In this document: piece by piece, positions 5,076 through 39,712 of the stretch
Layout of the letters: every line of letters begins with the position of its first letter
How positions within the stretch are numbered: position 1 is the first letter of the stretch
From: an uncultured Bacillota bacterium
Lineage (GTDB): Bacteria; Bacillota; Dethiobacteria; DTU022; UBA8154
DNA length: 64,000 nt
Assembly: GCA_937973635.1 (NCBI GenBank)
Contig: CALJJZ010000044.1
Location: 72-64,071, forward strand
Direction of reading: 5' to 3'
Notes under the pieces: generated by a model
Seen by the model: the letters and a program-made list of their open reading frames with translations, nothing else
Databases searched by the model: none
What the model was told of the DNA's origin: nothing
Position numbers and translations under genes: made by a program

Positions 5076-5100
5076 GGTAACTATCTCTAAGGGTAACTGC

Positions 5101-23285: not shown

Positions 23286-24161
23286 ATGGGTATGGAGAAA
23301 GGGGAAAAAGAACAGAAACTGAGGGGAGCTGGCGGTATTAAGCTGGAAGCAAAGCATGATTTTGATGCCAATGGAGAGGGCGAGGAGAGGGACGGCCGCT
23401 ACGTCCAATCTGTGGAAAGGGTCCTCAATATTCTTGAAGCCATGGCCAGCGTAGGCGGCCCTATTACTGTAACTGAACTGGCAGACCGGGTTAAACTCAA
23501 GATCAGTACCGTGCACCGCCTCCTCTCAACTTTATTGCACCGCGGGTACGTAGAACAGGAGGACGACAATAAATACAGATTGGGCCTGAAACTCATGGAG
23601 ATAGGCAATGCTGTCCTCTATTATTCCGATATCCGCACCGTGGCGAGGCCATATCTGGAAGAGCTTATGGAGCGCTGCAATGAAACAGTTAACCTGGCCA
23701 TCCTGGATGATGTGGACGTAGTTTATATTGATCAGGTTGAGTCTAAGAACCTGATCATCGTTAAAATGCTGGCTCAGGTGGGAAACCGCGGCCCGGTTCA
23801 CTGCACTTCTTCCGGCAAAGTACTCTTGGCTTTCCTTCCGGAAGACAAAAGGGAAGAGGTAATTTCCAGATTGGATTTGGTTAAATATACCAATGAAACC
23901 ATTACCGACCCGGATAATCTGCGCAAAGAATTAAAGCGGGTACGGGAAGACGGTTATGCCGTGGACTGGGGAGAGCGGGAGGAACACGTCCGTTGTATCG
24001 CTGCGCCCATTCTTAACCACGAGGGGCGTGCCATTGCCAGCGTGAGTATATCCGGCCCCAGCAACCGCATTACCACTTATTATATGAAAAATGAACTGGT
24101 TGACTTAATCCGACAGACGGCACGAAAAATTTCCCACAAAATGGGTTATAACGGCGCTTAG
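23286..24161 (+). CDS. IclR-family transcriptional regulator
   Basis: N-terminal HTH (VQSVERVLNILEAMA...ITVTELADRVKLKISTVHRLLSTL) and C-terminal IclR effector domain (GAV fold motifs). Confidence 0.85.
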   Translation: MGMEKGEKEQKLRGAGGIKLEAKHDFDANGEGEERDGRYVQSVERVLNILEAMASVGGPITVTELADRVKLKISTVHRLLSTLLHRGYVEQEDDNKYRLGLKLMEIGNAVLYYSDIRTVARPYLEELMERCNETVNLAILDDVDVVYIDQVESKNLIIVKMLAQVGNRGPVHCTSSGKVLLAFLPEDKREEVISRLDLVKYTNETITDPDNLRKELKRVREDGYAVDWGEREEHVRCIAAPILNHEGRAIASVSISGPSNRITTYYMKNELVDLIRQTARKISHKMGYNGA

Positions 24162-24261: not shown

Positions 24262-24309
24262 TCATTTTCGCGATGAGGAAAACAATTTTAAAAATTGGGG
24301 GGTTCCGCA

Positions 24310-25587
24310 ATGGAATTGTCGGGCGTATCGGTGGCGGGAGCTTGCGAGTTGAATCCTTTTGCCATGGCGCAGCAACAGTGTGATGATTGTGCCAATATCC
24401 TTAACATTGACCAGGGTGTGCGGGAAATTATCCGCGAACCAATGCAGGAGATACATGTTTCTATCCCTGTACGTATGGACGACGGTAGCATCAAGGTTTT
24501 TAAAGGGTTCAGGGTTATACATAACAATGCCCTGGGGCCGGCCAAAGGCGGCATCCGTTTTCATCCCGACGAAACGGCGGATACGGTAAGGGCCCTTGCC
24601 ACGTGGATGACCTGGAAGTGCGCCCTGGTGGAGCTGCCCCTGGGCGGCGGCAAAGGGGGCGTTGTCTGTAACCCCAAAGAGATGTCCCAGGGAGAGCTGG
24701 AACGGCTCAGCCGGGGCTATGTGGACCGGGTCTGGCAGGTAATCGGGCCGGATAAAGATATTCCCGCCCCCGATGTATATACAAACCCGCAAATTATGGC
24801 CTGGATGATGGATCAATATTCCAAAATAGCGGGGAAGAACCAGTTTGGTGTGATTACGGGCAAGCCGCTGCGCCTTGGCGGTTCTGCCGGGCGCCATGAC
24901 GCTACGGCCAGAGGCGGGCTCTATGTGCTGCGGGAAGCGGCCCGGGCCCGGGGCCTTAACCTGAAAGGCGCTACCATGGCGATACAGGGCTACGGCAATG
25001 CCGGCTCTTATGTGGCTTCCCTGGCGCAGGAGCTGTTTGGCTGCCGCATCGTGGCTGTAAGCGACAGCAAGGGTGCCGTATATAACAAAATGGGGCTGGA
25101 CCCCCAGCTTTTGAGCGAGCATAAATCCTTTACCGGCTCCGTCGTCGGCTTTCCCAAGTCCGACCCCCTGCAGCAGGCAGAGCTTTTGGAGCTGGACGTT
25201 GACGTGCTCTGCCCCTGTTCCCTGGAAGGCGTGATCAACGCCGGGAATGCAGAGCGCATCAAAGCCTCCATCGTTGCCGAATTTGCCAACGGTCCCACTA
25301 CGCCGGAGGCAGACGAAATCCTCTTTGCCCGCGATATTCACCTGCTCCCCGATTTTCTTTGCAATGCCGGCGGCGTAACCGTTTCTTATTTTGAAATGGT
25401 GCAGAATTTTAACATGTTTTACTGGGAAGAAAAAGAAGTATATGAGCGCCTGGACAGAAAGATGACGGCAGCTTACCACTCCGTGCTGGAGATGTCGAAA
25501 AAGTATGGGGTAAATATGCGGCGGGCTGCCTATATTCTTGCGGTGCGGCGGGTAGCCGAAGCCATGCAATTGCGCGGCTGGGTTTAG
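24310..25587 (+). CDS. gdh: Glutamate dehydrogenase (Glu/Leu/Phe/Val dehydrogenase family)
   Basis: Catalytic Lys motif KGGIRFHP, GGGKGG loop, and NAD(P)-binding Rossmann motif GYGNAGS. The long ORF on the opposite strand is antisense. Confidence 0.9.
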   Translation: MELSGVSVAGACELNPFAMAQQQCDDCANILNIDQGVREIIREPMQEIHVSIPVRMDDGSIKVFKGFRVIHNNALGPAKGGIRFHPDETADTVRALATWMTWKCALVELPLGGGKGGVVCNPKEMSQGELERLSRGYVDRVWQVIGPDKDIPAPDVYTNPQIMAWMMDQYSKIAGKNQFGVITGKPLRLGGSAGRHDATARGGLYVLREAARARGLNLKGATMAIQGYGNAGSYVASLAQELFGCRIVAVSDSKGAVYNKMGLDPQLLSEHKSFTGSVVGFPKSDPLQQAELLELDVDVLCPCSLEGVINAGNAERIKASIVAEFANGPTTPEADEILFARDIHLLPDFLCNAGGVTVSYFEMVQNFNMFYWEEKEVYERLDRKMTAAYHSVLEMSKKYGVNMRRAAYILAVRRVAEAMQLRGWV

Positions 25588-25658: not shown

Positions 25659-25712
25659 TACCATAAACCGGCTCGAGCCAGATCTCGAAGCCGGTTTATG
25701 GTTTTATTTTTA
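25659..25712 (+). terminator. Rho-independent terminator after gdh (ATACCATAAACCGGC...GCCGGTTTATGGT + T-run)
   Basis: Stem of about 13 bp followed by TTTTATTTTTAT. Confidence 0.7.
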
Positions 25713-25775: not shown

Positions 25776-25837
25776 CAGAAAAATAGAAAACATTTTCGCA
25801 TTGCGGAATATATTCTTTTAGGGGAGAGGTGTCAGCC

Positions 25838-26626
25838 ATGACGCAAATGGTGAAAAACCATGTGCGGGAGAAACCGGTACAATCGGTGGAACGGTCGCTG
25901 CGCATCCTTGAACTCATGGCGGAACGGGGGCAGCCTTTAAGCCTCAGCGATATCAGCCACCACCTCAAACTGAAGATAAGTACGGCCCACCGCCTGTTAA
26001 AAACCTTAATCATCTGCGGCTTTGCCCAGCAGGATCCTTATTCCGGAAAATACCTCCTCGGCATCAAGAATTTTACCATCGGTTACAACGCCCTGTACAG
26101 CCTTGATATCCGCAACGTTGCCCGCCCTTTCCTGCATCAGCTCGTAGCCAGGTACCACGAAACGGCGAGCCTCGGTATTCTGGATCAGGGCGATCTGATC
26201 TATATTGACCAGGTTGAATCGGAAAAAATGGTAAAGATGCTCGCCCGCCTGGGCAGCCGCCTGCCGGCCCATTCCCATGCGGTGGGCAAAGTGCTCTTGT
26301 CGGCCCTGAGCGAAACGGAACTGGAGCTGTTCCTGAAAAACAAAAAGCTGGAAAAGTTTACAGAAAACACCATTAACTCGGCAGAGCAATTAAAAAAAGA
26401 GCTGTACACGATCCGCAAGCAGTCCTATGCTCTGGATCTGGAAGAGACGGAGCTGGGAATCCGCTGTGTGGCCGCCCCTGTCTTTAACCACCTGGGCCAT
26501 GCCACGGCTGCAGTGGGCATATCAGCGCCAAGCAGCCGCGTCAGCTCCACATATCTTAACGAGTTGGCCGGCGCAGTAAAGCAAGCAGGTAAGGAAATAT
26601 CCATGCGCCTAGGTTATAAAGGGTAG
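25838..26626 (+). CDS. IclR-family transcriptional regulator (second)
   Basis: HTH (VQSVERSLRILELMAERGQPLSLSDISHHLKLKISTAHRLLKTL) plus IclR effector domain. A paralog of the 23286 gene. Confidence 0.85.
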   Translation: MTQMVKNHVREKPVQSVERSLRILELMAERGQPLSLSDISHHLKLKISTAHRLLKTLIICGFAQQDPYSGKYLLGIKNFTIGYNALYSLDIRNVARPFLHQLVARYHETASLGILDQGDLIYIDQVESEKMVKMLARLGSRLPAHSHAVGKVLLSALSETELELFLKNKKLEKFTENTINSAEQLKKELYTIRKQSYALDLEETELGIRCVAAPVFNHLGHATAAVGISAPSSRVSSTYLNELAGAVKQAGKEISMRLGYKG

Positions 26627-26662: not shown

Positions 26663-27229
26663 TTGGCCAAGGTAGCGGAGGAGTTAAAAAATGGACAGAA
26701 AGAGACGGCCGGCCAGAACAACGTATCCCTGGTGGCTTTATTGCAGGAGGTGCAGGAACGGTACAATTATCTCCCGGAAGACGTCTTAAGGGAGCTGGCC
26801 CGCGAGAAGAACCTTTCTCTTATGGAAATGTACAGTGTGGCTACTTTTTATAAGAGTTTTAGCCTGCAGCCACGGGGCAAACATAAGGTTGCAACCTGTT
26901 CTGGCACGGCCTGCCATGTCCGGGGCAGTGAAAAGGTTACGGAAGAGCTCTCCCGGGTGCTCGGCATCAAGCCCGGAGAAACGTCGCAGGACGGCGCATA
27001 CTCTCTGGAAACCGTCAACTGCCTGGGGGCGTGCGCCCTTGCCCCCCTGGTAGTGGTGGACGGGGAGTACCACGGCAATATGACAGCTGCTAGGGCTGCT
27101 GCTCTGATTAAAGAACATTTAAAGAAAAGCAGGGGTTTGTCTGCAGCAGAACTGGAGCAGGATGTGGAAAAGAAAGCCTGGGAAGGTTGTTCCTGTGCCA
27201 TACTGCTTGCCGGAAATGATAAAAAGTAA
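26663..27229 (+). CDS. NuoE/HydC-like thioredoxin-fold [2Fe-2S] subunit (24-kDa type)
   Basis: The CxxxxC...CxxxC motifs (ATCSGTACHVRG...CLGACALAPLV) and overall similarity to NADH dehydrogenase subunit E. Confidence 0.85.
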   Translation: MAKVAEELKNGQKETAGQNNVSLVALLQEVQERYNYLPEDVLRELAREKNLSLMEMYSVATFYKSFSLQPRGKHKVATCSGTACHVRGSEKVTEELSRVLGIKPGETSQDGAYSLETVNCLGACALAPLVVVDGEYHGNMTAARAAALIKEHLKKSRGLSAAELEQDVEKKAWEGCSCAILLAGNDKK

Positions 27230-27253
27230 CGGATCTGCCGGAGGGAGAAGATT

Positions 27254-29119
27254 ATGGATGCTCTAAAAACCGGCTTGCGGTCGCTGCCGGAACTGTTTGA
27301 CTTGCAGCTGGAGTTAAAAAAGAAAAGGGAACAAAGGGAAAATTACCTCGCTGTCTGCGGCGACACGGGCTGTACTGCCTGGGGTTCGGAGCAGGTTAAA
27401 GATCTTTTTGCCCGGTGCCTGGAAGAAAAGGGGCTCAGTCAAAGTACGGGCCTAAAATTTACCGGCTGCCTGGGATTGTGTGAGTGCGGGCCCGTGGTCA
27501 TCGTCTTTCCCCAGGGTATATTTTACCAGAAGGTAAAAACGGAAGACATTGAAGAGATTGTGGAGCAGACGCTGCTGCAGGGCAAGGTCGTGGAGCGGCT
27601 CCTTTATCAGGACCCGCTGAGTGGGGCAAAAATTGTTCATGCGGAGGAGATACCTTTTTACCGTAAGCAGCAGCGGGTCTTGCTGGCAAACAACTGGAAA
27701 ATAGATCCTTCCAGTATTGAAGATTATCTGGCCCTAGGTGGCTATGGCGCCCTGGGTCGTGTCCTCGGTCAGATGAGCAGTGAACAGGTGATCGGGGAGA
27801 TAAAAGCTTCCCGCCTGCGCGGCAGGGGCGGCGCCGGTTTTCCGGCGGGGCTGAAATGGGAAGAGTGCAGCGGGATGCCGGCAAAGCAGAAGTATATCAT
27901 TTGTAATGCCGACGAGGGCGATCCCGGCGCTTTTATGGACCGCAGCCTCCTGGAGGGGAATCCCCATTCTGTCCTGGAGGGTTTGATCATCGGCGGTTTT
28001 GCCGTGGGCGCCAGCGAAGGCATTATCTATATCCGGGCCGAATACCCCACTGCCGTGCAGAAGGTAAGGTTGGCCATTGCCCAGGCGGAGGAGCTGGGCT
28101 TGCTGGGGGAAAACATCCTTGGCAGCCGCTTCAGTTTTAAGGTAAGTGTAAGCGTGGGAGCCGGGGCTTTCGTTTGCGGGGAGACTTCCGCCCTGGTGGA
28201 GTCGGTACATGGTCGTGTTGGTGAGCCCCGGCAAAAGCCCCCTCATCTGGCAGAGCGGGGTTATAACAACTGTCCCACGGTAATTAACAACGTAGAGACG
28301 CTGGCAAATATTCCTTACATTATAAATATGGGTGCAGAGGCTTACAGCCGGATTGGTTCGGGAAAATCAGGAGGCACGAAGATCTTTTCCCTGGTGGGTA
28401 AGGTCCATCACACGGGGCTGGTGGAGGTGCCCCTGGGTATGCCCCTGCGCAAGATTATTTTTGAGATCGGCGGGGGGATCAAAGGGGGAAAAGCGTTTAA
28501 AGCGGTTCAGACGGGAGGTCCGTCGGGGGGCTGCCTGCCCGCTTCTATGCTCGACCTGCCCACTGATTTCGATGAGCTGAACGCAGCAGGTTCGATGATG
28601 GGTTCGGGCGGGATGATCGTAATGGATGAGGAAACCTGTATGGTTGACCTGGCCCGTTATTTTTTAAAATTCCTGAATGATGAGTCCTGCGGCTGTTGTT
28701 TTACCTGCCGGGAAGGCCTCAGCCGTATGCTGGAGATGGTGGAGGCCATTACCAAGGGGCAAAGCAGCATGGCGGAGTTTGCCCTGCTTAAAGAACTGGC
28801 TGCCGTAGTCAGGGATTCGACCATGTGCGGCCTGGGCCAGACGGGCGCCAACCCGGTGCTTTCCACGATCCGCTACTTCACGGAAGAGTACCGCGCCCAT
28901 ATAGAGGAAAGGAGATGCCCTGCCGGCGTTTGCCGGGACCTGATCAGCTTCCATATTAATAGTGAACTGTGCAACGGTTGCGGCGCCTGCCGCCGCAAGT
29001 GCCCGGCAGGGGCGATTACAGGTGAGGCCAAGATGCCCCACTTCATCCGGGCGGAGCTCTGCACGAAATGCGGTATCTGCCTGGAAAGCTGTCCCATTCA
29101 GGCTGTAATTAAACTGTAA
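27254..29119 (+). CDS. NuoF/HydB-like NADH-binding FMN flavoprotein with an N-terminal [2Fe-2S] domain and C-terminal 2x[4Fe-4S] ferredoxin domain
   Basis: N-terminal thioredoxin-like cysteines, 51-kDa core (GRGGAGFPAGLKWE, SLVGKV, 4Fe-4S CGxCxxC), and C-terminal CNGCGACRRKCP...CTKCGICLESCP. Confidence 0.9.
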   Translation: MDALKTGLRSLPELFDLQLELKKKREQRENYLAVCGDTGCTAWGSEQVKDLFARCLEEKGLSQSTGLKFTGCLGLCECGPVVIVFPQGIFYQKVKTEDIEEIVEQTLLQGKVVERLLYQDPLSGAKIVHAEEIPFYRKQQRVLLANNWKIDPSSIEDYLALGGYGALGRVLGQMSSEQVIGEIKASRLRGRGGAGFPAGLKWEECSGMPAKQKYIICNADEGDPGAFMDRSLLEGNPHSVLEGLIIGGFAVGASEGIIYIRAEYPTAVQKVRLAIAQAEELGLLGENILGSRFSFKVSVSVGAGAFVCGETSALVESVHGRVGEPRQKPPHLAERGYNNCPTVINNVETLANIPYIINMGAEAYSRIGSGKSGGTKIFSLVGKVHHTGLVEVPLGMPLRKIIFEIGGGIKGGKAFKAVQTGGPSGGCLPASMLDLPTDFDELNAAGSMMGSGGMIVMDEETCMVDLARYFLKFLNDESCGCCFTCREGLSRMLEMVEAITKGQSSMAEFALLKELAAVVRDSTMCGLGQTGANPVLSTIRYFTEEYRAHIEERRCPAGVCRDLISFHINSELCNGCGACRRKCPAGAITGEAKMPHFIRAELCTKCGICLESCPIQAVIKL

Positions 29120-29122
29120 GGA

Positions 29123-29806
29123 GTGCTGCCGGTGGTTAATTTTAAATTGAACGGTCTGGAAGTGGCCGTGGAAAAAGGAACAACGCTTTTGGAGGCAGCC
29201 CGTTTTTATGGCATTGAAATCCCCACCCTCTGCTATGACGCGGGCCTGAGCCCTTACGGCGCCTGCCGCCTCTGCCTCGTGGAGGTGGGGGAGCCGGGAA
29301 AATCACGCCTGGTTACCTCCTGCACTTACCCGGCGCGGGAAGGGCTGCAGGTCAGGACACACTCCCAATGGGTGGTAAATACACGTAAGTTAATTATTGA
29401 GCTTTATTTGGCTACCTGTCCTTCTTCGAAAACCATTCAGGACCTGGCCTCTCGTTACCACGTAACCGGTGTCCGTTTTCGTCAAAAACACGAGGACTGT
29501 ATCCTTTGCGGGCTTTGTATCCGCTACTGCAGTGAACAGATGCAGGCCAAGGCCATTGGTTTTATCAACAGGGGGGAGAAGCGGCGTATCAGCACGCCCT
29601 TTGAACGTAAGGCGGAAGAATGCAGGTTTTGCGGAGGGTGCATGTATATCTGTCCGGCCTGCCAGGCCCGTTGCCAGGGGCCCGAGGAAAAGGAAGCCGT
29701 CTGCAACGCGTGTTTGAACCTCTCCCCGCCCTGCCTTGATCGTTTTAACGATGCCATGTGTTATCTGGATCCCTGCGTGGCCTGTGAGCAGGGGCGCAAG
29801 GAATGA
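29123..29806 (+). CDS. NuoG/HydA-N-terminal-like ferredoxin module ([2Fe-2S] plant-type + [4Fe-4S] clusters) without a catalytic domain
   Basis: Two-Fe-2S motif (CYDAGLSPYGACRLCLVEV...SC), His/Cys cluster, and two CxxCxxCxxxCP motifs. Only 227 aa. Confidence 0.7.
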   Translation: MLPVVNFKLNGLEVAVEKGTTLLEAARFYGIEIPTLCYDAGLSPYGACRLCLVEVGEPGKSRLVTSCTYPAREGLQVRTHSQWVVNTRKLIIELYLATCPSSKTIQDLASRYHVTGVRFRQKHEDCILCGLCIRYCSEQMQAKAIGFINRGEKRRISTPFERKAEECRFCGGCMYICPACQARCQGPEEKEAVCNACLNLSPPCLDRFNDAMCYLDPCVACEQGRKE

Positions 29807-29848
29807 CACTTTAAAATATTGAAAAGATTTTAGAAAGGAGTATTGACC

Positions 29849-31432
29849 ATGACTTATTCACGTTTAAACGCCTCTGCGGCTACCCTGACCAAAAACCGCA
29901 CGGAAGGTTCGATCAGCCCTTTCAGCGGTATGTGTGTAACCTGCGTGGACGGTTGTATCGGTATGTGCGAGATTGGCAAGTCAGCCTACCGCGGCCACGA
30001 AACCATCTACCCCCAGCCCTTTGGGTTGATTACCACTGCTTCGGAAAAAGTTTATCCCCTGGATTATTCCCATTTTACAATTCTGGGGACCGCTGTGGGC
30101 GCCCACGGTATCGAAGCGGACAGCGACAAGGCCATCTTTCCGGCGGTAAACCTTGAAACCAGGGTGGGGCAGGGTGCGGGGATCCGTGTCAAATTACCCT
30201 TTGTCATCTCGGGTATGGGTTCCACCGATGTGGCCGGCAACAACTGGGAGGGATTGGCCTCCGGCGCCGCCCTGGCCGGTGTGATCCTGACCATTGGTGA
30301 AAATGTATGCGGTATGGATACGAGTACAGTGATAAAGGACGGACGGGTAGTTAGCACCACCGACCTGGACCGGCGTGTAAAAATTTACCAGCAATGGCAG
30401 CGGGACGGCTATGGGGCCATCGTTGTCCAGGCCAACGTAGAAGATACGCGGCTGGGAGTCCAGGAGTACGCCATCAGCCAGCTTGGCGTGGAAGCCGTGG
30501 AATTGAAATGGGGCCAGGGTGCCAAGGATATTGGCGGCGAGGTAAAGATCCGGGACCTGGAAAAGGCCCAGCTGTTAAAGCAGAGGGGCTATGTGGTCCT
30601 GCCCGATCCTGAAAACCCTGCGGTGATTGCTGCTTTTAAACAGGGCTCTTTTAAGGAATTTGAGCGCCACTCCCGTGTTGGTATGGTGGAGCTGGAATCT
30701 TTCCTTAAGCGCGTGGAAGAACTGCGCCGGGCCGGAGCCAAATATATCTTCCTGAAGACGGGTGCCTACCGCCCGGCAGACCTGGCCAGGGCGATCAAAT
30801 TTGCCTCCCTGGCGCGCCTTGACCTGCTTACTGTGGACGGGGCGGGAGGCGGCACCGGCATGAGCCCCTGGCGCATGATGAACGAATGGGGCATCCCCTC
30901 CGTGGAGCTGCATTCCCTGCTCTACCGTTATGCGGTCAGGCTGGCGGAAAAGGGCGAATATGTGCCCGACCTGGCCCTGGCCGGAGGTTTTACCCTGGAG
31001 GATCAGGTCTATAAAGGACTTGCCCTTGGCGCTCCCTACGTCAAGCTCATCGGTATGGCCCGTTCCCCCCTGGCGGCGGCGATGGTGGGCAAAACAATCG
31101 GGCGTCGTATCGCCGAAAACCAGGTGCCCGTCTATGTGGAGCGCTTTGGCCATACGATCGAAGATATTTTTGTCACTGCCGCCTCCTTGAAAGAAGAACT
31201 GGGCGAAGAAACTTTCCGCCAGGTTTCGCCGGGGGCCCTTGGCGTTTACACCTATTTTGAGCGCCTGGCCCAGGGGTTGAAGCAGCTTATGTGTGGCAGC
31301 CGCAAATTTGCCCTTGCTTATCTTACCCGGGACGATATTGCGGCCCTCACCAGGGAAGCAGCGGAGGTCAGCGGGATTGACTATGTCATGGACGTGGACA
31401 GGGAAGAGGCGGAGAGGATTTTGGACCTCTAA
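29849..31432 (+). CDS. Stand-alone glutamate-synthase large-subunit domain-2-like FMN/Fe-S protein (YerD / archaeal GltB-2 type, Pfam Glu_synthase)
   Basis: N-terminal CxxCxxxCxxxC cluster, then the GltB FMN-domain fold (GxSxG-like GMGSTDV, LVISGHDGGTGAS-like LTVDGAGGGTGMSP). About 527 aa. No amidotransferase or GXGXG domain. Confidence 0.75.
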   Translation: MTYSRLNASAATLTKNRTEGSISPFSGMCVTCVDGCIGMCEIGKSAYRGHETIYPQPFGLITTASEKVYPLDYSHFTILGTAVGAHGIEADSDKAIFPAVNLETRVGQGAGIRVKLPFVISGMGSTDVAGNNWEGLASGAALAGVILTIGENVCGMDTSTVIKDGRVVSTTDLDRRVKIYQQWQRDGYGAIVVQANVEDTRLGVQEYAISQLGVEAVELKWGQGAKDIGGEVKIRDLEKAQLLKQRGYVVLPDPENPAVIAAFKQGSFKEFERHSRVGMVELESFLKRVEELRRAGAKYIFLKTGAYRPADLARAIKFASLARLDLLTVDGAGGGTGMSPWRMMNEWGIPSVELHSLLYRYAVRLAEKGEYVPDLALAGGFTLEDQVYKGLALGAPYVKLIGMARSPLAAAMVGKTIGRRIAENQVPVYVERFGHTIEDIFVTAASLKEELGEETFRQVSPGALGVYTYFERLAQGLKQLMCGSRKFALAYLTRDDIAALTREAAEVSGIDYVMDVDREEAERILDL

Positions 31433-31496
31433 GCTGAAATTCTTCCAGAGCAGGCTGGATGGCGGGCGAAAAAGAATACAATGACTGTGGCATACA

Positions 31497-31525
31497 TTGA
31501 CAGCAAAAGATTACTTTTGTTATAT
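31497..31525 (+). promoter_or_regulatory. Sigma-A promoter TTGACA-17-TTATAT upstream of the LarA-like gene
   Basis: TTGACA at 31497-31502 and TTATAT at 31520-31525. Confidence 0.5.
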
Positions 31526-31610
31526 TTCTAGTGACCTTATTATGGCCCTTTGCCAGGTCGGATCACCGCCTGCTCAGCAAAAATGAACTTTGTTTATCTT
31601 CCAGTTTATA

Positions 31611-31642
31611 AGCGCTGCCGCAGAGAGGGCAGCGCTTTTTTC
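31611..31642 (+). terminator. Rho-independent terminator (AGCGCTGCC-gcagagag-GGCAGCGCT + TTTTTT)
   Basis: Nine-bp GC stem plus a T6 run between the GltB-like and LarA-like genes. Confidence 0.7.
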
Positions 31643-31687
31643 TACATGCCGTTAAGTGGCCAAAATTGAGCGGAAAGGGGTGGCGCC

Positions 31688-32929
31688 ATGGAAGAATTAA
31701 AATTCAGGTTGCCGCAAAATGCTTGGCACGGCGATGCGGAGGTGGAAATCGCCCTGCCGGCAACATGGGAGGTCAAGCTGGCGGAAATTCCGGCCGACAG
31801 CCTGCCGGTCCTGGGGAAAGAGGAGATGGCTGCGCGCTTGCTTAAGCCCATCGCTTCTTCTCCCCTCTCTGACCTGGCCCGGGGCCGCCGGAAAGCTGTT
31901 ATTATCTTTGACGACCTCTCCAGGCCTACCATGATGGACGTGGTAGCGCCCATGATCGTGGCAGAACTTTTAAAGGGCGGTATGGAAGAAAACAGCATCT
32001 CTTTTGTGGCTGCCCTGGGTGCGCACGGCGCCCACACGCTGCTCGACTTTACCAAAAAGCTGGGCGCGGAGATTGTGGGGCGTTTCCCTGTTTATAACCA
32101 CAATCCCTACGAGAATTGCTCCTACGTGGGGAAAACTTCTTCCGGCCTCCCTGTATATATCAACGACGAAGTGCTCAGTGCCGATTTAAAGATAGGTATT
32201 GGCAGCATTCTGCCCCATGCCTTTAACGGCTTTGGCGGCGGCGGGAAAATTGTTTTTCCCGGGGTGGCGGGGATGGAGTCTATCTATCTTAATCACAGCA
32301 AAGTCCTGGCTGACTTAAAAGAAAGGAACGTAGGTTTTACCGGCAATATGGGTGATATGGCGAACAGCCGCATGAAAGACGATATTGAAGAAATTGTACG
32401 TATGATTAATTTTAATTTTAAAATTGACATACTGCCCAACAGCAAAAGGGAGGCTGTGGAAATGGTGGCCGGCGATCCCATACTGGCGCATTATAAAGGC
32501 GTGGAGATGGCCTCCCGGCTTTATTTAACCGAGTTCCACGGCGATGCGGACATTGTCATCGCCAATGCCAATGCCAAGGCCAATGAGTCGTTGATCGCCC
32601 TCCTGCAGGGAGCGGCTTCCTTAAAGGAAGAGGGCGGCGATCTGGTGCTGATCGTAGATTTTCCCGCGGGACAGGTGGTGCACTACCTGCTGGGGCAGTG
32701 TGGCGAAAAAAGGGGTGGCAGGCTCTGGCCCGGGGAAGTCGCCTTTCCTCCCCGTATCCAGCGCGGCATCCTCTTCACCAGCAACCCCGGCCAGCGTTTC
32801 GGCCTTTGCCATAGCCTGGTGGAATGTTGCCGCTGGGATGATGTGCGTACTCTCTTGCAGGAGAAATACGGCGCTAAGACCAAAGCGGTAATTTATAAAG
32901 ACGCTACCATGCAATTTTTTCGCCGCTAA
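31688..32929 (+). CDS. LarA-family (DUF2088) nickel-pincer-nucleotide-dependent alpha-hydroxy-acid racemase/epimerase-like protein
   Basis: Approximately 413 aa. KAVIIFDDLSRPT resembles the LarA ...SDxTRP motif, ALGAHGAHT the ATGTHR motif, and PHAFNGFGGGGK the H..GfsGG.K motif. Confidence 0.5.
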   Translation: MEELKFRLPQNAWHGDAEVEIALPATWEVKLAEIPADSLPVLGKEEMAARLLKPIASSPLSDLARGRRKAVIIFDDLSRPTMMDVVAPMIVAELLKGGMEENSISFVAALGAHGAHTLLDFTKKLGAEIVGRFPVYNHNPYENCSYVGKTSSGLPVYINDEVLSADLKIGIGSILPHAFNGFGGGGKIVFPGVAGMESIYLNHSKVLADLKERNVGFTGNMGDMANSRMKDDIEEIVRMINFNFKIDILPNSKREAVEMVAGDPILAHYKGVEMASRLYLTEFHGDADIVIANANAKANESLIALLQGAASLKEEGGDLVLIVDFPAGQVVHYLLGQCGEKRGGRLWPGEVAFPPRIQRGILFTSNPGQRFGLCHSLVECCRWDDVRTLLQEKYGAKTKAVIYKDATMQFFRR

Positions 32930-33101
32930 GGCAGGAAAGGTAAAAAAAATGTCAAATATAAATTATAAATGTATATTATTTCGTAATAATTAATATAGCA
33001 GTGCAAGGGGGTGAATAAGGATAATATATGAGACAATAGTAACGGGAAAGTTGTACGTGGGGGAATTTCCAGAAAAATTTATTTATAACAGGAGGTCAAC
33101 G

Positions 33102-34187
33102 ATGAAAAAGAAGGTTACGGTATTTTTACTTCTGGGGGCTATGCTGGCGCTGGCACTGGCCGGATGCGCCCAGCAGGCGGCGCCTGCTCCCGCTACACCG
33201 GGGGCTCCTGCTGCTGCCGCTCCGGAAAAGGTCTTTAACTGGCGAGCCCAGGGCATTTATACCCCTGGAGACCCGGGGCTGGAGATCCAGCAAGCTTTTG
33301 TGGACAGGGTCAAGGAGCTTTCCGGCGGTAGGCTTAATATCACGCTGCATCCCATTGGCGCCATCGTGGGACCTTTTGAGACCTTTGATGCGGTGGCCAC
33401 AGGGGTGCTGGAAGTAGGCATGAAAACCCCTATGTGGTGGGGCGGTAAAGAACCTGTATGCAACCTTTTGACCAGTCTCCCGGGCAGCTTTACCCATGCC
33501 TACCAGTTGGATGCCTGGTACTGGGAGCACGGCGGCATTGATATTGCCCGGGAAGCCTACGGCAGGCATGGTATCTATTTTGTTGGGCCGGCTATCTTCG
33601 GTGTTCCGCCTATTGGAGCCGAAGTGGTTCATTCCCGTGTGCCTATCCGCAGTATCGATGATTACAGGGGGCTGAAGGTCCGCAGCGGCGGCGCTGCTGC
33701 CAAATGGTTTGAGGGCCTGGGAGCCTCCATCGTCACTCTCCCCGGACCGGAGATCTACCCATCTCTGGAAAAGGGAGTTGTAGATGCTGCCGAATGGGTT
33801 TCTCCCAACTCCAACTATGCGTTGGGCCTGCATGAGGCTGCTCCCTATGTAATTATGCCCGGGCTACACACACCGCTGATGGCTTCTGAGGTTACAGTAA
33901 ATATGGAGGCCTGGAACTCGCTCCCCGATGACCTGAAGGCCATTATGGAGGTCGCCACCAAGGAGCTTTCCGTAAGAAAAGCTCAGAGGTTTGAAAACCT
34001 CGACCACTACTACCTTGATAAGATGAGGGAATACGGGGTGGAAGTAATCGAGTGGACGCCGCAGGAAATTGCCAGGGCGGCCCAGTATTCTATGACTCTG
34101 TTTGAAGGCTTTGCCACCGATGAACTTTCCAGGCGGGCCTTGGATTCCCAGTTAAATTATCTGCGGACGATCGGCGTTATCCAATAG
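33102..34187 (+). CDS. TRAP transporter substrate-binding lipoprotein (DctP family)
   Basis: Lipobox ALAGCAQ, DctP-fold motifs, and RBS AGGAGG 7 nt before the ATG. Confidence 0.85.
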   Translation: MKKKVTVFLLLGAMLALALAGCAQQAAPAPATPGAPAAAAPEKVFNWRAQGIYTPGDPGLEIQQAFVDRVKELSGGRLNITLHPIGAIVGPFETFDAVATGVLEVGMKTPMWWGGKEPVCNLLTSLPGSFTHAYQLDAWYWEHGGIDIAREAYGRHGIYFVGPAIFGVPPIGAEVVHSRVPIRSIDDYRGLKVRSGGAAAKWFEGLGASIVTLPGPEIYPSLEKGVVDAAEWVSPNSNYALGLHEAAPYVIMPGLHTPLMASEVTVNMEAWNSLPDDLKAIMEVATKELSVRKAQRFENLDHYYLDKMREYGVEVIEWTPQEIARAAQYSMTLFEGFATDELSRRALDSQLNYLRTIGVIQ

Positions 34188-34227
34188 CCTAAGTGCTGAA
34201 TAGTCTTAAGGACTGGAGGGCATCTCC

Positions 34228-34731
34228 TTGAAACCTCTGCTGACTGTAATAGACGCTATTTCCGAATACACAGGTAGGCTTTTTGCCTACCTGTGTATTC
34301 CAGTCATTGCCATCATCATGATCGAAGTAATAGGGAGATATTTCTTTACTCACCCCTTTATCTGGAGCCATGAATCTATGACTTTTACAAGCGCGGGTAT
34401 CTATCTTTTGGGTGGGGCTTATATTTTAAAAGAACGGGGACATATCAGCGTGGATCTGATTTATCGCTATCTGCCGGTCCGGGCAAAGGCGATTATGGAT
34501 CTTGTGGTGTCAGTTTTCTTTTTCATTTATATTTATGTCCTGTTGAAGGTAGGGATGAACTACGCTCTTACCTCGGTGCGCATCCTGGAGAAGAGCGGCA
34601 CGCCCTGGAATCCTCCCATCTATCCGGTAAAGCTTGCCATTGCTATTGCCACTCTCCTTATTTTCCTTGCCGGAATAGCTAATTTTATCCGTGACCTGAA
34701 GGTCGCCATTACAGGGAGGGAAGAGCTATGA
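34228..34731 (+). CDS. TRAP transporter small permease (DctQ)
   Basis: Four-TM protein of about 167 aa. Its stop overlaps the dctM start. Confidence 0.75.
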   Translation: MKPLLTVIDAISEYTGRLFAYLCIPVIAIIMIEVIGRYFFTHPFIWSHESMTFTSAGIYLLGGAYILKERGHISVDLIYRYLPVRAKAIMDLVVSVFFFIYIYVLLKVGMNYALTSVRILEKSGTPWNPPIYPVKLAIAIATLLIFLAGIANFIRDLKVAITGREEL

Positions 34732-36038
34732 GCATTGAACTTATTACCTTGTTTATGTTTGGCGGCCTCTTTCTTCTCCTGCTTTTGAATGTGCCTATCG
34801 CCTTTGCCACCGGTTCCATCGCTGTCATCAGTGCCTACCTTTTCTGGAGCCCCAAGGCGGTGAACCTCTTTCCCACTTCTGTTTACACTATGGTCACAAA
34901 TTATATCTTTGTAGCTGTCCCCATGTTTATCTTCATGGGTTCTGTCCTGGAGCGCTCCGGCATTACAGACTATCTTTACGAAGCAGTTTACCGCTGGGTT
35001 GGTTCTCTGCGGGGCAGCCTGGCCATGGCCACTGTGCTGGCGAGCATTATTATGAGCGCCATGGTGGGGGTGATTGGGGCTATTATTGTTAGCATGGGGT
35101 TAATTGCTCTTCCCTCTATGCTTAAACGGGGTTACGATAAAGGTATTGCCATGGGCAGCATTATGGCCGGCGGCGCCCTGGGTGTGCTTATACCGCCCAG
35201 CATTATGCTCATCATGTACGCTATGTGGGCGGGCCTCTCCATCAGGAAGATTTTTCTGGGGGCGATCATGCCCGGCTTGCTGCTGGGAGGGCTCTTCCTC
35301 GTCTATATTGCTGTAAGGTGCTATATTCAGCCCCACCTGGGGCCTGCATTGCCCAAAGAAGAGCGGATCCCCTTTAAAGAGAAGCTGAAATACTTAAAGG
35401 CGCTGATCCTGCCTGTTGCCCTTATCGTTTTTGTGCTAGGTTCCATCCTTACCGGTATTGCTGCCCCCACAGAAGCCAGCGGCATCGGGGCTTTTGGCGC
35501 CCTAGTATGCGCCGCCGTTTACCGCCGGCTGAACTGGGATCTTGTCAAAAATGCCTGTCTGAGCACCATCAGGCTTTCGGCAATGGTCATGTGGATCGGT
35601 TTTGGCGCTGTTATGTTTATCAGCACCTATAACGCCCTAGGAGGTGTCCAGTTCGTCCAGAACCTCATCCTTGCCCTACCGGTGCAGCCATGGGTCCTTT
35701 TGGTGGGGATGATGGCCATTGTCATTGCTCTGGGAATGATTATCGAATGGGTGGGGATTATTATGCTGGTGGTGCCGATTTTCCTCCCTATTGTAGCGGC
35801 CCTTGGCTTCGATCCCCTCTGGTTTGGGGTCCTTGTCTGTGTTAACCTGCAGATGGACGTGCTGACCCCGCCCTTTGGCTATGCCCTTTTTTACATGAAG
35901 GGTGTGGCGCCAAAGGAAGTTACTACGGCCGATATCTACCGGGCCTCCATTCCTTTTGCCCTTTTGCAGCTGACAGGCCTTATTTTATGCATGATCTTTC
36001 CCCAGATCATCCTCTGGTTGCCCAATTTGATGTACTGA
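34728..36038 (+). CDS. TRAP transporter large permease (DctM)
   Basis: Twelve-TM profile. DctM family length is 436 aa. Confidence 0.85.
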   Translation: MSIELITLFMFGGLFLLLLLNVPIAFATGSIAVISAYLFWSPKAVNLFPTSVYTMVTNYIFVAVPMFIFMGSVLERSGITDYLYEAVYRWVGSLRGSLAMATVLASIIMSAMVGVIGAIIVSMGLIALPSMLKRGYDKGIAMGSIMAGGALGVLIPPSIMLIMYAMWAGLSIRKIFLGAIMPGLLLGGLFLVYIAVRCYIQPHLGPALPKEERIPFKEKLKYLKALILPVALIVFVLGSILTGIAAPTEASGIGAFGALVCAAVYRRLNWDLVKNACLSTIRLSAMVMWIGFGAVMFISTYNALGGVQFVQNLILALPVQPWVLLVGMMAIVIALGMIIEWVGIIMLVVPIFLPIVAALGFDPLWFGVLVCVNLQMDVLTPPFGYALFYMKGVAPKEVTTADIYRASIPFALLQLTGLILCMIFPQIILWLPNLMY

Positions 36039-37618: not shown

Positions 37619-39712
37619 GTGAAAGGCATGACAAAGAGTAACGGCCAGTTGAAAGAAGGAGCCGGGGGGTTGCCTCCATGCCAGGTAGCCTGTCCCATCC
37701 ACCAGGAGGTAAGGGAATACCTGCGCTTTATTGCCACCGGTGATTTTGATCGTTCCCTGGAGGTAATTAAGCGGACCAGTCCCCTTTCTGCAGTGTGCGG
37801 CACGATCTGCGCCCACCACTGTGAGGACGAATGTCGCCGTCAGAATGTGGATGAGCCCCTCTCTATCCGCGGCTTAAAGAGGTCTGCCGTGGATTTTGGC
37901 AGCGCTGATTTTCCGGCACCTGTTCCCGTAGATGAAGGGAAAAAAGTGGCCATTATCGGTTCCGGCCCCGCGGGCATGACTGCCGCCTTTGACCTGGCTC
38001 TGCAGGGCTGCCGCGTCACCATTTTTGAGCGGGAGAAGGATTTTGGAGGCGCCCCGCGCAACTTTATTCCTCTTTACCGCCTTCCCGATGAAACCATTGA
38101 TCTGGATGTGGAGAATTTAAAGAAGCTCGGCGTGGAGTTTAGAGGCGGCGTGGAGTTTGGCAGCGATATTATGCCCGACGACCTGCGCAAAGAGGGTTAT
38201 AAGGCGATCCTGATCGCCGTGGGCCTGACTGCAAGCCGCGGCCTGCCGCTGCCGGGGGCGGACCATCAGGATGTATTGATGGCCCTTAATTTCCTCCGTG
38301 CCTCCAAAAGGGAGAATTTCCGCCTGGACGGAAGGGAAGTAATTGTTATTGGCGGCGGCAACGTGGCCATGGACGTAGCTCGTTCGGCGGTGCGTTGCGG
38401 CGCCGCCAAGGTGAGGCTGGCCTGCCTGGAGTCTGAAGCAGAGATGCCGGCTTTCTCCTGGGAGATTGAGGAGGCCAAAGAAGAAGGGGTAGAGATGAAC
38501 TGCTCCTGGGGGCCCACGGCGATCCGCGTAGAAAACGGCCGCATTACCGGCCTGGAGATGCATGAATGTACCTCTGTCTTTACCGACGGGCGCTTCAACC
38601 CCTGTTTTAACCCCGAGAACAAGAGCTTTATCCCCGGTGATACAGTCATCTTTGCCATCGGCCAGGCGCCTGACCTGAAAGCGGTAAGCAATGCCGGTAT
38701 CCCCCTTAACGAGCGTGGCCTCATGGAGTTTGACCCCTTCACTATGAAGACGCCGATACCAGACATTTTTGCCTGCGGCGAGATAGTAAACGGTCCAAGC
38801 ACCGCTGTTAAGGCTATGGCCCATGCCCGCGTGGCGGCCATGGCTATTTGCCATTATCTGGAAGGAAAGCCCTTTGTCGCCTCCATGGTGGAAGAGCAGG
38901 AAGCACTGCCCAAGCTGGCCGACGATGTGGCTGTGAAAGTAAAGAAGATCGCCCGGGCGGAGATCCCCCTCCTTACCCCGGAGGAGCGCTCTGCTAACTT
39001 TAAGCCGGTAGAAACGGGCTATACTATGGCTATGGCCGTCTGGGAGAGCCGCCGCTGTCTTGGCTGTGCCGCCGGTGCCGTACGCGTGGTGGAAAAATGC
39101 GCCGACTGCCTGACCTGCTTGCGTACCTGCCCCTACAACGTGCCTGTGGTCAGCGAGATGGGCGATCTCATGATCCGCGACCACCAGTGCCAGGCCTGCG
39201 GGCTTTGCCTTACGGTCTGCCCCAACCTTGCCATAGATTTCCGTACCCCGTATATTACGGAAGCGGAAGAGCGGCTGGAAGCTGTTGCCGGCGAGCTGGT
39301 GGCTTCACGCAATGGGAAGCCCCTGATTATGGTCCTTTCCTGCGCCCTCGGTGCTTACGCCCTGCCCGAGTTCCGCCAGGATTTCATGCAGCAGAAGCCG
39401 GCCAATGTGGGGGTAGTCCGTTTTCCCTGTATCTCCAAGATCGATACCACCCATATCCTCAAGGCTTTCCAGCTTGGTGTTGACAGCGTGGTGGTAGCGG
39501 GCTGCGCTTCTGACGAAGCCGATGACTGTCCTTTCCAGAAGACCATGTACTGGGCGGAGCAGCGCGTCAGCCGCGCAAAATCCCTGTTACAGGAAGCGGG
39601 TCTGGAAGGGGAACGGGTGGCCCTTTTAAGCTTTACCCCGGAACAGGTGGCGAACTTTAAAGAGGCCATTGCCGATACCCTGGTGCAGCTGGAAGGACTG
39701 GGACGGCGCTAG
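37619..39712 (+). CDS. GltD-like NAD(P)H:FAD oxidoreductase (N-terminal 2x[4Fe-4S]) fused to a 2x[4Fe-4S] ferredoxin and an MvhD/FlpD-like domain
   Basis: CQVACPIHQEV...CGTICAHHCEDECRR (GltD N-terminus), two dinucleotide-binding motifs (IIGSGPAGMTAA, VIGGGNVAMD), CPYNVP...CQACGLCLTVCP, then the MvhD pattern (VVRFPCISKID...VVAGCASDE..CPF). Confidence 0.8.
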   Translation: MKGMTKSNGQLKEGAGGLPPCQVACPIHQEVREYLRFIATGDFDRSLEVIKRTSPLSAVCGTICAHHCEDECRRQNVDEPLSIRGLKRSAVDFGSADFPAPVPVDEGKKVAIIGSGPAGMTAAFDLALQGCRVTIFEREKDFGGAPRNFIPLYRLPDETIDLDVENLKKLGVEFRGGVEFGSDIMPDDLRKEGYKAILIAVGLTASRGLPLPGADHQDVLMALNFLRASKRENFRLDGREVIVIGGGNVAMDVARSAVRCGAAKVRLACLESEAEMPAFSWEIEEAKEEGVEMNCSWGPTAIRVENGRITGLEMHECTSVFTDGRFNPCFNPENKSFIPGDTVIFAIGQAPDLKAVSNAGIPLNERGLMEFDPFTMKTPIPDIFACGEIVNGPSTAVKAMAHARVAAMAICHYLEGKPFVASMVEEQEALPKLADDVAVKVKKIARAEIPLLTPEERSANFKPVETGYTMAMAVWESRRCLGCAAGAVRVVEKCADCLTCLRTCPYNVPVVSEMGDLMIRDHQCQACGLCLTVCPNLAIDFRTPYITEAEERLEAVAGELVASRNGKPLIMVLSCALGAYALPEFRQDFMQQKPANVGVVRFPCISKIDTTHILKAFQLGVDSVVVAGCASDEADDCPFQKTMYWAEQRVSRAKSLLQEAGLEGERVALLSFTPEQVANFKEAIADTLVQLEGLGRR

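Follow-up and report, generated by a model that had tools for sequence, protein, structure and literature searches.

We analyzed a 64,000-nucleotide stretch of DNA (the window) from an uncultured Bacillota bacterium of the Dethiobacteria lineage (assembly GCA_937973635.1, contig CALJJZ010000044.1) and focus here on four consecutive genes, bfuC, bfuB, bfuA, and gltB2. The first three encode NuoE-, NuoF-, and NuoG-like proteins that, judged by sequence comparison, appear to make up a Type-2-like Bfu enzyme under the published definition of that family (PMC9304861). The fourth encodes a GltB2-like protein (GltB2) with a partial match to the flavin mononucleotide (FMN)/iron-sulfur domain of glutamate synthase (GltS). 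Our preferred reading, to which we give about an even chance, is that BfuCBA and GltB2 form one soluble iron-sulfur flavoprotein Bfu complex that would use 2-oxoglutarate plus NH3/glutamate as its third substrate. Its substrate, direction, and stoichiometry we infer from gene context and motifs.

The cluster appears new in combining a Bfu core with a GltS-like catalytic subunit, but the Bfu core itself is already known. A first-pass annotation of this locus had proposed an undescribed NADH-coupled oxidoreductase complex. This stands for the combination, since we found no description of a NuoEF/HydABC/Bfu complex with a glutamate synthase domain in the searchable literature, but not for the electron-transfer module, which belongs to an already defined family. 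The only literature matches likened GltD to NfnB/StnC or used the search terms in unrelated ways. The third modules listed for Bfu enzymes are FeFe, NiFe, Fdh, Nfn, F420, Por, Codh, Wor, Bam, Rub, Mbh, and Nuo, with 17 clades lacking an assignment; neither the text nor the supplement of that study mentions glutamate synthase (PMC9304861). In a genome study of Dehalobacteriia, a NuoE/NuoF/NuoG-like cluster is noted as unassigned and as lacking close characterized homologs; it may or may not be the same as the cluster described here.

Composition and conservation of the four-gene cluster

The genes of the window were identified from a listing of open reading frames (ORFs) together with Pfam and NCBIfam scans. 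These bore out the earlier account of a NuoE-like, a NuoF-like, and a NuoG-like gene without a catalytic domain, followed by a GltB-like gene for 527 amino acids (aa):

26663-27229, + strand: NuoE-like BfuC, 188 aa; PF01257 at 158.9 bits; TTG start with a GGAGG ribosome-binding site
27254-29119, + strand: NuoF-like BfuB of the HydB type, 621 aa; from Pfam domains and PDB alignments
29123-29806, + strand: NuoG-N-terminal-like short BfuA, 227 aa; Fer2_4 plus a 4Fe-4S dicluster (Fer4_7/Fer4_Nqo3)
29849-31432, + strand: GltB2-like protein, 527 aa; partial PF01645 match; ATG start (MTYSRL...) with an AGGAG ribosome-binding site

In the window, bfuC lies directly 5' of bfuB. The gap between the NuoG-like and GltB-like genes, earlier given as 36 nucleotides (nt), is actually 42 nt, with the start ATG of gltB2 at 29849; as had been claimed, no terminator-like site lies within it. 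Pfam also agreed with the annotation in finding no amidotransferase and no GXGXG domain in the GltB-like protein. More broadly, the amidotransferase (GATase_2), central (Glu_syn_central), and GXGXG domains are missing from both GltB2 and the window operon, and no GltD gene was found within the operon. Likewise, the ORF listing and domain scans revealed no catalytic subunit of a hydrogenase or formate dehydrogenase near the operon, again as first described.

To place the cluster in a wider context, GTDB species genomes were scanned with a family alignment, which confirmed at least 573 loci. The best 80 species-level loci were kept for neighborhood counts, and their surroundings were read by tblastn with the window proteins plus a crude gene map. 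The order NuoE-NuoF-NuoGN-GltB2 was kept wherever the contig reached, across these 80 loci and more than 15 phyla. The NuoG-like gene was directly 5' of GltB2 in 79 of the 80 (the remaining locus has only 72 nt upstream), at a median gap of 54 nt, and a NuoF-like gene was present in all 69 loci with sufficient upstream sequence; a NuoE-like gene was found in 62. The phyla represented include Bacillota, Zixibacteria, Planctomycetota (including Scalindua), Aminicenantes, Acidobacteriota, Ignavibacteria/Bacteroidota, Latescibacterota, Verrucomicrobiota, Thermodesulfobacteriota, and Acetothermia, among others. The check that had been suggested earlier, whether the GltB-like gene is co-conserved with the NuoEF-like genes, therefore came out positively in essentially all 80 loci and well beyond Clostridia. 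Median identity to the window proteins was 74% for GltB2, 63% for NuoGN, 52% for NuoF, and 49% for NuoE, making the GltB2 catalytic subunit the most constrained of the four.

This conservation bears on whether the four proteins work together at all. The BfuABC-like and GltB2-like genes could be mere neighbors, with the BfuABC partner encoded elsewhere, and some Bfu clades indeed have no obvious third partner nearby (PMC9304861). We consider this very improbable here. Adjacency, order, and strand are kept with short gaps in all evaluable loci of these many phyla, and it is GltB2 that changes least. Moreover, the flanks of the 80 loci contained no recurring hydrogenase or formate dehydrogenase gene and no other recurring candidate catalytic gene. 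Apparent NuoG-GltB2 gene fusions, seen as long ORFs in three loci (L071, L070, and L046), were rejected as artifacts of the ORF caller in GC-rich DNA, as the two genes lie in different frames.

The nearest related locus (L001), 81% identical, comes from a metagenome-assembled genome (MAG) of Dethiobacter alkaliphilus and is syntenic with the window to either side, with cinA and a gene for a GltD-MvhD fusion lying downstream in both. At the position that gdh (glutamate dehydrogenase) occupies in the window, the Dethiobacter locus carries a second GltB2 gene (L001 4126-5709) between two IclR genes. This copy is 61% identical to its neighbor and may provide an alternative catalytic subunit or one that varies in specificity. 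Another Bacillota MAG has a TetR regulator and two genes of the HGD-D family (2-hydroxyglutaryl-CoA dehydratase D-component-like) a short way upstream of its cluster (L002 3158-5654); as a single occurrence, this may be coincidence.

The electron-transfer module and the GltB2-like protein

Pfam resolved BfuB into an N-terminal 2Fe-2S_thioredx domain (residues 29-105), Complex1_51K, NADH_4Fe-4S, and two C-terminal Fer4 domains, with scores of 151 bits for PF01512 and 96 bits for PF10589, PF00037 found twice, and the N-terminal domain being PF01257-like. An SLBB domain (PF10531) scored 23.2 bits, under its 27-bit cut-off. Residues 31-620 aligned to residues 7-596 of the NiFe-HydB of Acetomicrobium mobile (7t2r_B) at 738 bits, and the HydB subunits of FeFe-hydrogenases and WorB reached 700-728 bits (matches include 7q4v_B, 8a6t_B, and 9mqx_B, the last at 701.9). 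NfnB (9n5u_B) followed at 637 bits. By contrast, non-bifurcating NuoF/FdsB proteins scored only ~340-364 bits. All cysteine motifs are kept, namely the N-terminal 2Fe-2S site, the N3 cluster, C-P-A-x2-C, and two C-terminal CxxCxxCxxxCP motifs. The HydB architecture first ascribed to the NuoF-like protein is thus upheld by an end-to-end alignment to bifurcating BfuB/HydB with every cysteine motif in place.

The other two subunits gave a similar picture. The best solved relatives of BfuC are the HydC subunits of bifurcating hydrogenases (8a6t_C, 7t2r_C, and 7p5h_C), and 9mqx_C scored 119.6 bits. Short BfuA matched PF13510 at 67 bits, with Fer4_7 (26.9 bits) and Fer4_Nqo3 (24.8 bits) both barely under their 27-bit cut-offs, and Pfam found no molybdopterin or H-cluster domain in it. 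Its best PDB match is the 247-aa WorA (9mqx_A), at 130.9 bits over residues 5-192 against 5-193, followed by the N-terminal domains of HydA. In the Bfu definition, BfuB carries IPR011538, IPR019554, IPR019575, and IPR017896, BfuC carries IPR002023, and BfuA has at least 2Fe-2S and 4Fe-4S ferredoxin-type domains (PMC9304861). Domain scans and PDB alignments found these sequence-level features in the BfuB, BfuC, and BfuA of the window. Short BfuA presumably acts as the wire from the BfuBC core to the catalytic subunit. In most loci outside Bacillota, the NuoE-like subunit is longer than the 188 aa of the window protein, at ~280-330 aa (e.g., L003 5234-6082 and L082 5124-5972), and carries an additional C-terminal region.

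These features also speak to a simpler possibility, namely that the complex is a plain, non-bifurcating NADH glutamate synthase in which the NuoEF/NuoG-like module replaces GltD and the ferredoxin-like domain of BfuB is structural or a relay. NuoEF modules do act as plain NADH dehydrogenase units within complex I, NAD-dependent formate dehydrogenase, and Hox hydrogenase, all of which were among the lower-scoring PDB matches. Established potentials make the NADH-only reduction of 2-iminoglutarate exergonic, and the electron-input modules of the GltB2 family are evidently interchangeable. Still, we regard this as rather improbable. Bifurcating Bfu enzymes are told apart from non-bifurcating NuoF homologs by the N-terminal 2Fe-2S cluster, the C-P-A-x2-C site, and the C-terminal 2x[4Fe-4S] domain (PMC9304861). 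BfuB has this full cofactor set, and its scores are about twice as high against bifurcating HydB/BfuB as against the non-bifurcating proteins.

Two forms of BfuB occur among the 69 loci. In 20, it ends in a ferredoxin-like C-terminus as in the window and is 610-670 aa long, whereas in the majority (49 of 69) it is ~1,050-1,100 aa long and its C-terminus is a GltD-like module (Fer4_20 plus Pyr_redox_2). Both forms occur within Zixibacteria, and both within Planctomycetota. In most other phyla the fused GltD-like module takes the place of the BfuB ferredoxin domain, a pattern suggesting that ferredoxin and NADP(H) can substitute for each other as the second redox partner. The earlier statement that no GltD partner is adjacent therefore stands for this lineage but not elsewhere. 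Separately, 6 kb downstream in the window (37619-39712) lies a gene for a 697-aa fusion of a GltD-like part (Fer4_20 plus Pyr_redox_2), a 4Fe-4S dicluster, and MvhD/FlpD. It is conserved in the Dethiobacter locus (L001 15016-17118) and shares 35% identity with the GltD portion that is joined to BfuB in other phyla.

The closest solved analog of the predicted complex is WorABCSL of A. mobile (Wor-Bfu, Type-2, PDB 9mqx; PMC9304861), a tungsten aldehyde oxidoreductase in which the truncated BfuA, WorA, docks a separate catalytic module (PMC12318220). Both combine BfuC, BfuB, and a short BfuA lacking an H-cluster or pterin domain, with the catalytic site on an extra subunit that feeds BfuA. They differ in that this subunit is a tungstopterin aldehyde oxidoreductase in WorABCSL and an FMN TIM-barrel relative of the GltS domain in the window. 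The third substrate is a low-potential aldehyde in the former, but would be the high-potential 2-oxoglutarate plus NH3 in the latter. StnABC/NfnABC (PDB 9n5u and 8oh5; PMC7483475, PMC10482914, and PMC12018979) likewise pair a NuoE-/NuoF-like Bfu core with a GltD-like module for NADPH and flavin adenine dinucleotide (FAD). In those enzymes, however, the GltD-like domain belongs to BfuA and NADPH is the third substrate, whereas in GltB2 clusters that have such a domain it replaces the C-terminal ferredoxin domain of BfuB, and GltB2 is always present. The window operon has no GltD-like domain.

PF01645 is the sole Pfam family matched by GltB2, at 56.8 bits against a cut-off of 20.4, with residues 279-399 covering model positions 186-303 of 369; no NCBIfam model matched. 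Of the earlier claim that the protein has only the FMN/Fe-S domain of GltS, the single match is in agreement, but that match is partial and the 3Fe-4S motif is absent. The 120 best matches among 5.8 billion proteins are all at least 74% identical, come from many phyla, and carry no more specific name than "FMN-binding glutamate synthase family protein"; the exact window sequence had no match among the database records. Identity between phyla was 72% or higher. In a phmmer search of 1.84 billion cluster representatives, GltB2 gave only 1,102 matches at E <= 1e-3, which suggests that the large canonical GltB/PF01645 population was not reached by this query. By these comparisons, GltB2 appears to be a tight, highly conserved, and distinct family, a divergent member of the PF01645 superfamily.

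Two GltS-like motifs link GltB2 to this superfamily. The first, LKWGQGAKDIGGE at residues 219-231, compares with IKVAQGAKPGEGG at 930-942 of Escherichia coli GltB, and the second, DGAGGGTGMSP at residues 330-340, compares with DGGTGASP at 1026-1033. The order and spacing of KxxQGAKxxGG followed by GGTGxSP are as in GltS, and both motifs are conserved at 80% or more among divergent GltB2 relatives. The equivalence of KxxQGAK (LKWGQGAK vs. IKVAQGAK in GltB) was bridged in HMMER through one relative, P0222, and the GGTGxSP stretch with the following barrel strands is statistically alignable (window residues 320-396 vs. E. coli GltB 1014-1088). P0222 is an 800-aa metagenomic protein comprising a 4Fe-4S dicluster, FrhB/FdhB N- and C-terminal domains, and a GltB2-like domain that is 39% identical to the window protein; PF01645 covers model positions 57-305 of it, more than in the window protein. 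Near the N-terminus of GltB2, C29-x2-C32-x3-C36-x3-C40 is invariant in close homologs and kept down to ~40% identity. A predicted model of the protein has an FMN-oxidoreductase-type TIM barrel.

GltB2 therefore resembles domain 2 of GltB (PF01645) in its above-threshold profile match, its motif order and spacing, and an Fe-S cluster presumably beside the FMN. A GltD-like module in the same predicted complex, fused to BfuB in the 49 loci noted above, and the occurrence of GltB2 relatives in nitrogen-assimilation loci extend the likeness to GltB/GltD. The differences are equally clear. GltB2 has 527 aa against 1,486 for E. coli GltB, its sequence similarity is confined to ~80-170 residues, and it carries C-x2-C-x3-C-x3-C instead of the 3Fe-4S motif, in addition to lacking the three other GltB domains; moreover, canonical GltB was not reached from it by phmmer or by profile. 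Because it lacks defining features of GltS proper, GltB2 should not be filed as GltB or, as it was first called, "YerD-like," which these comparisons suggest is a poor label. The putative F420H2-dependent glutamate synthases of methanogens, FGltS(I/II) (PMC3448663), offer another parallel, having a stand-alone GltS-type subunit with a dedicated input module, and the FrhB/FdhB-type F420 module of P0222 is reminiscent of them. Their input module, however, resembles an F420H2 dehydrogenase rather than Bfu, their proposed reaction is glutamine-dependent, and FGltS is also predicted only.

Nitrogen context, proposed function, and alternatives

The surroundings of the cluster point to nitrogen metabolism. 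In about 16 of the 80 loci, gdh lies no more than 10 kb away, mostly directly adjacent and co-directional, and in two (L013 and L035) it is within the same sigma-54 operon as the cluster. In 43 loci, genes for a GAF histidine kinase and a sigma-54-dependent response regulator precede the cluster, as is typical outside Bacillota. Of 54 loci, 22 have the sigma-54 promoter-like sequence TGGCAC-N5-TTGC, with at most one mismatch allowed, within 900 nt 5' of the NuoE-like gene, against an expectation of 0.015 per 900 nt.

In at least 16 loci, the sigma-54 operon is headed by a Cys-rich unannotated ORF of ~100-150 aa, directly 5' of the NuoE-like gene (e.g., L003 ~4740-5179, L082 4733-5083, and L080 6135-6482). 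It has two GLCxxC-x5-C-x9-10-C(E/D)E(F/Y) repeats and no Pfam match, and might encode a further subunit that binds metal or else a regulator. The window has no counterpart.

A sister subfamily of GltB2 (~534 aa, ~50% identity over the full length, with the same C-x2-C-x3-C-x3-C and KWGQGAK motifs) is not adjacent to Bfu genes and sits instead in nitrogen-assimilation loci. Its genes were found flanked by glutamine synthetase (GS) and a class-II amidotransferase in L083, by a GAF/sigma-54 activator and GS in L087, and by gltBD and a GS-III-Amt-PII-Amt array in L089, as well as adjoining Rnf in L086, and one genome (L088) has both subfamilies side by side. The sister protein may be a stand-alone, possibly ferredoxin-dependent, glutamate-synthase-like enzyme. 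Read from these gene contexts, the GltB2 protein family as a whole appears tied to glutamate/ammonia metabolism, with an exchangeable electron-input module.

The same complex could nonetheless act on something else, such as another 2-oxo or 2-imino acid, a 2-hydroxy acid, or an unrelated FMN-dependent reduction. We judge this unlikely, though it deserves real weight, given that similarity to GltB is local only, that the second Dethiobacter paralog hints at substrate diversification, that HgdAB-like dehydratase genes lie upstream in one Bacillota locus, and that genes for a LarA-family 2-hydroxyacid racemase and a DctPQM transporter lie directly 3' in the window. GltB2 shares 12-19% identity with alpha-hydroxy-acid oxidases and dehydrogenases (lactate oxidase, mandelate dehydrogenase, and flavocytochrome b2; PF01070). 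The catalytic His/Arg motif of these enzymes is SNHGGRQ. At the corresponding position, after strand 6, GltB2 has TVDGAGGGTGMSP, with no His or Arg and with the GltS-type DGxGGGTGMSP in place. PF01070 gave no match to the window protein even at E = 10. Because the catalytic motif is replaced and this family does not match, we read the resemblance as general FMN-barrel similarity. In addition, hydroxy-acid oxidases have no Fe-S cluster, unlike the predicted GltB2, and the recurring neighbors are gdh and nitrogen-type regulators, with the sister subfamily in GS, Amt, PII, and gltBD loci.

LarA and the transporter were themselves considered as parts of a hydroxy-acid oxidation system and rejected. 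They are absent from all 80 loci by tblastn, and in the window a terminator and a separate promoter intervene. The syntenic Dethiobacter locus runs straight from gltB2 to cinA without larA-TRAP, so we regard larA-TRAP as an insertion specific to the window.

Under our preferred reading, the FMN of BfuB would be the binding site for NAD(H), and the C-terminal 2x[4Fe-4S] domain of the same subunit that for ferredoxin, while in the GltD-fused form NADP(H) would react at the fused module. The clusters of BfuA would then pass single electrons to the N-terminal 4-Cys metal cluster of GltB2, which would stand in for the [3Fe-4S] cluster of GltS and feed the FMN of the TIM barrel. There, 2-oxoglutarate and free NH3 would be converted through 2-iminoglutarate to L-glutamate without a glutaminase domain, by the synthase half-reaction described for GltS (PMC8097209). 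Glutamate formation would consume NADH and reduced ferredoxin together. The two donors would give a large driving force, allowing ATP-independent ammonia assimilation at low ammonium as an alternative to the GS-glutamate synthase (GS-GOGAT) route.

The 2-oxoglutarate + NH4+/glutamate couple has a potential of about -0.12 V. Because this lies above the potentials of NAD(H) and ferredoxin, the Bfu framework leads us to expect the reaction to run toward glutamate (Table 1 of PMC9304861). At micromolar-to-millimolar ammonium and a low 2-oxoglutarate/glutamate ratio, we estimate an effective potential of ~ -270 to -340 mV, and therefore the extra pull of ferredoxin would matter.

Several points weigh against this reading. 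No PDB entry matched GltB2 by sequence or by profile. Its similarity to canonical GltB is weak, local, and significant around GGTGxSP only, with pairwise scores scarcely above shuffles; hidden Markov models of close and of divergent homologs, hhalign, and Smith-Waterman alignment with shuffles gave no supported full-length alignment to E. coli GltB, the GGTGxSP region alone aligning. The GltS 3Fe-4S motif, C-x5-C-x4-C at E. coli GltB 1102-1113, is absent, and the matching stretch of GltB2 has no Cys at all. The residues earlier proposed for checking, KxxQGAKxxGG and GGTGxSP, are retained, and by analogy with GltS structures KxxQGAK/GGTGxSP would function in FMN and 2-oxoglutarate binding. On the energetic side, a high-potential third substrate has no obvious need for energy coupling, and the NADH and NADPH pair of the GltD-fused form brings no clear thermodynamic gain over NADPH-dependent glutamate dehydrogenase. 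Finally, an operon that includes gdh would express two enzymes for one product.

Electrons could also flow differently through the same subunits. In a classical bifurcation (2 NADH + Fd_ox + 2-OG + NH4+ -> 2 NAD+ + Fd_red + Glu, where Fd is ferredoxin, 2-OG is 2-oxoglutarate, and Glu is glutamate), NADH would donate at the BfuB FMN, with one electron passing via BfuA to 2-iminoglutarate and the other uphill to ferredoxin. Run in reverse, reduced ferredoxin would aid glutamate oxidation to NADH in amino-acid fermentation, comparable to the Etf-lactate dehydrogenase. Two Fe-S paths do meet at the BfuB flavin (PMC9304861), the phyla carrying the cluster are energy-limited anaerobes and degraders of amino acids, gdh is adjacent, one sister-subfamily gene adjoins Rnf, and our own estimate from standard potentials finds the reaction thermodynamically feasible. 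Even so, we think it improbable. In all characterized Bfu enzymes it is the third substrate, not NADH, that feeds or drains NAD and ferredoxin (PMC9304861, PMC12318220), such that this pattern of electron flow would be unprecedented in the family, and the majority form of BfuB is GltD-fused and has no ferredoxin domain.

At the level of physiology, we tentatively suggest, at somewhat less than an even chance, that the four-gene module represents either an unrecognized glutamine- and ATP-independent ammonia assimilation via NADH and ferredoxin (NADPH if GltD-fused) or a new bifurcation in which 2-oxoglutarate amination drives ferredoxin reduction.

Transcription units, flanking genes, and wider significance

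The genes and signals surrounding the cluster in the window are as follows:

23286-24161, + strand: IclR regulator, first of two, upstream of gdh
24295-25587, + strand: gdh, glutamate dehydrogenase; ELFV_dehydrog, GdhA_Arch at 599 bits
25746-25775, + strand: sigma-70 consensus promoter TTGACA-18-TATAAT, 12/12 hexamer positions matching, upstream of the second IclR gene
25829-26626, + strand: IclR regulator, second, and first gene of the unit; HTH_IclR plus IclR_C
31497-31526, + strand: near-consensus promoter-like site TTGACA-18-TATATT with extended TG, ahead of larA
31610-31637, + strand: intrinsic terminator-like hairpin (10-bp stem, seven GC pairs, T-run), after gltB2 and before larA
31688-32929, + strand: LarA-like gene (Pfam/NCBIfam scan)
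33051-36038, + strand: tripartite ATP-independent periplasmic (TRAP) transporter DctPQM (Pfam/NCBIfam scan)

The consensus promoter that was first said to be shared with an IclR gene is a perfect one, and it is the probable driver of an iclR-bfuCBA-gltB2 unit, with no further strong promoter-like site on the + strand between it and 31497. The operon is directly downstream of gdh, as described earlier, with gdh preceding the second IclR gene. A hairpin with a T-run of gdh's own can be read at about 25668-25705, and gdh appears to be a functionally associated neighbor outside the operon in the window. An IclR gene also adjoins the cluster in three other Bacillota loci (L001, L002, and L037).

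At the unit's other end, the hairpin and the promoter-like site mark larA as a separate transcription unit, in line with the original annotation. Within this 255-nt gltB2-larA spacer, the strong terminator hairpin lies ~80 nt after the promoter-like site, and the pair could be a leader/attenuator of larA-TRAP or an operon terminator beside a larA promoter. The fold of the spacer is unremarkable beyond the terminator (z = -2.1), and Rfam found no riboswitch or known RNA in it or in the rest of the 25.5-33.1 kb region. The lone Rfam match, CRISPR-DR19 at 27189-27225 (-) within the NuoE-like gene, scored 25.7 bits against a gathering threshold of 40 (E = 0.41) and is most likely due to chance. 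Among NCBIfam models, LarA matched that of the malate racemase LarAH6 family best, but its 212 bits fall far under the cut-off. LarA and DctPQM probably form a separate unit for hydroxy-dicarboxylate uptake and racemization.

If our preferred reading is true, these genes would encode an unrecognized central enzyme of nitrogen assimilation or redox balancing in many uncultured sediment and subsurface lineages, including Zixibacteria, Aminicenantes, Planctomycetota, Latescibacterota, KSB1, and Dethiobacteria. Metabolic reconstructions would need revision, as the present annotation is just "FMN-binding glutamate synthase family protein" beside "NADH dehydrogenase subunits." The Bfu family would gain an amino-acid/oxo-acid class of third substrate together with a new type of catalytic module, and Fe-S/FMN enzymes that resemble glutamate synthase and carry an N-terminal 4-Cys cluster would be defined as a new family. 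The natural pair of variants, with a ferredoxin domain or a GltD fusion, could likewise illuminate the low-potential branch of Bfu enzymes. Because Dethiobacter alkaliphilus, a described species, carries the closest syntenic locus and four proteins suffice, these ideas are directly testable.

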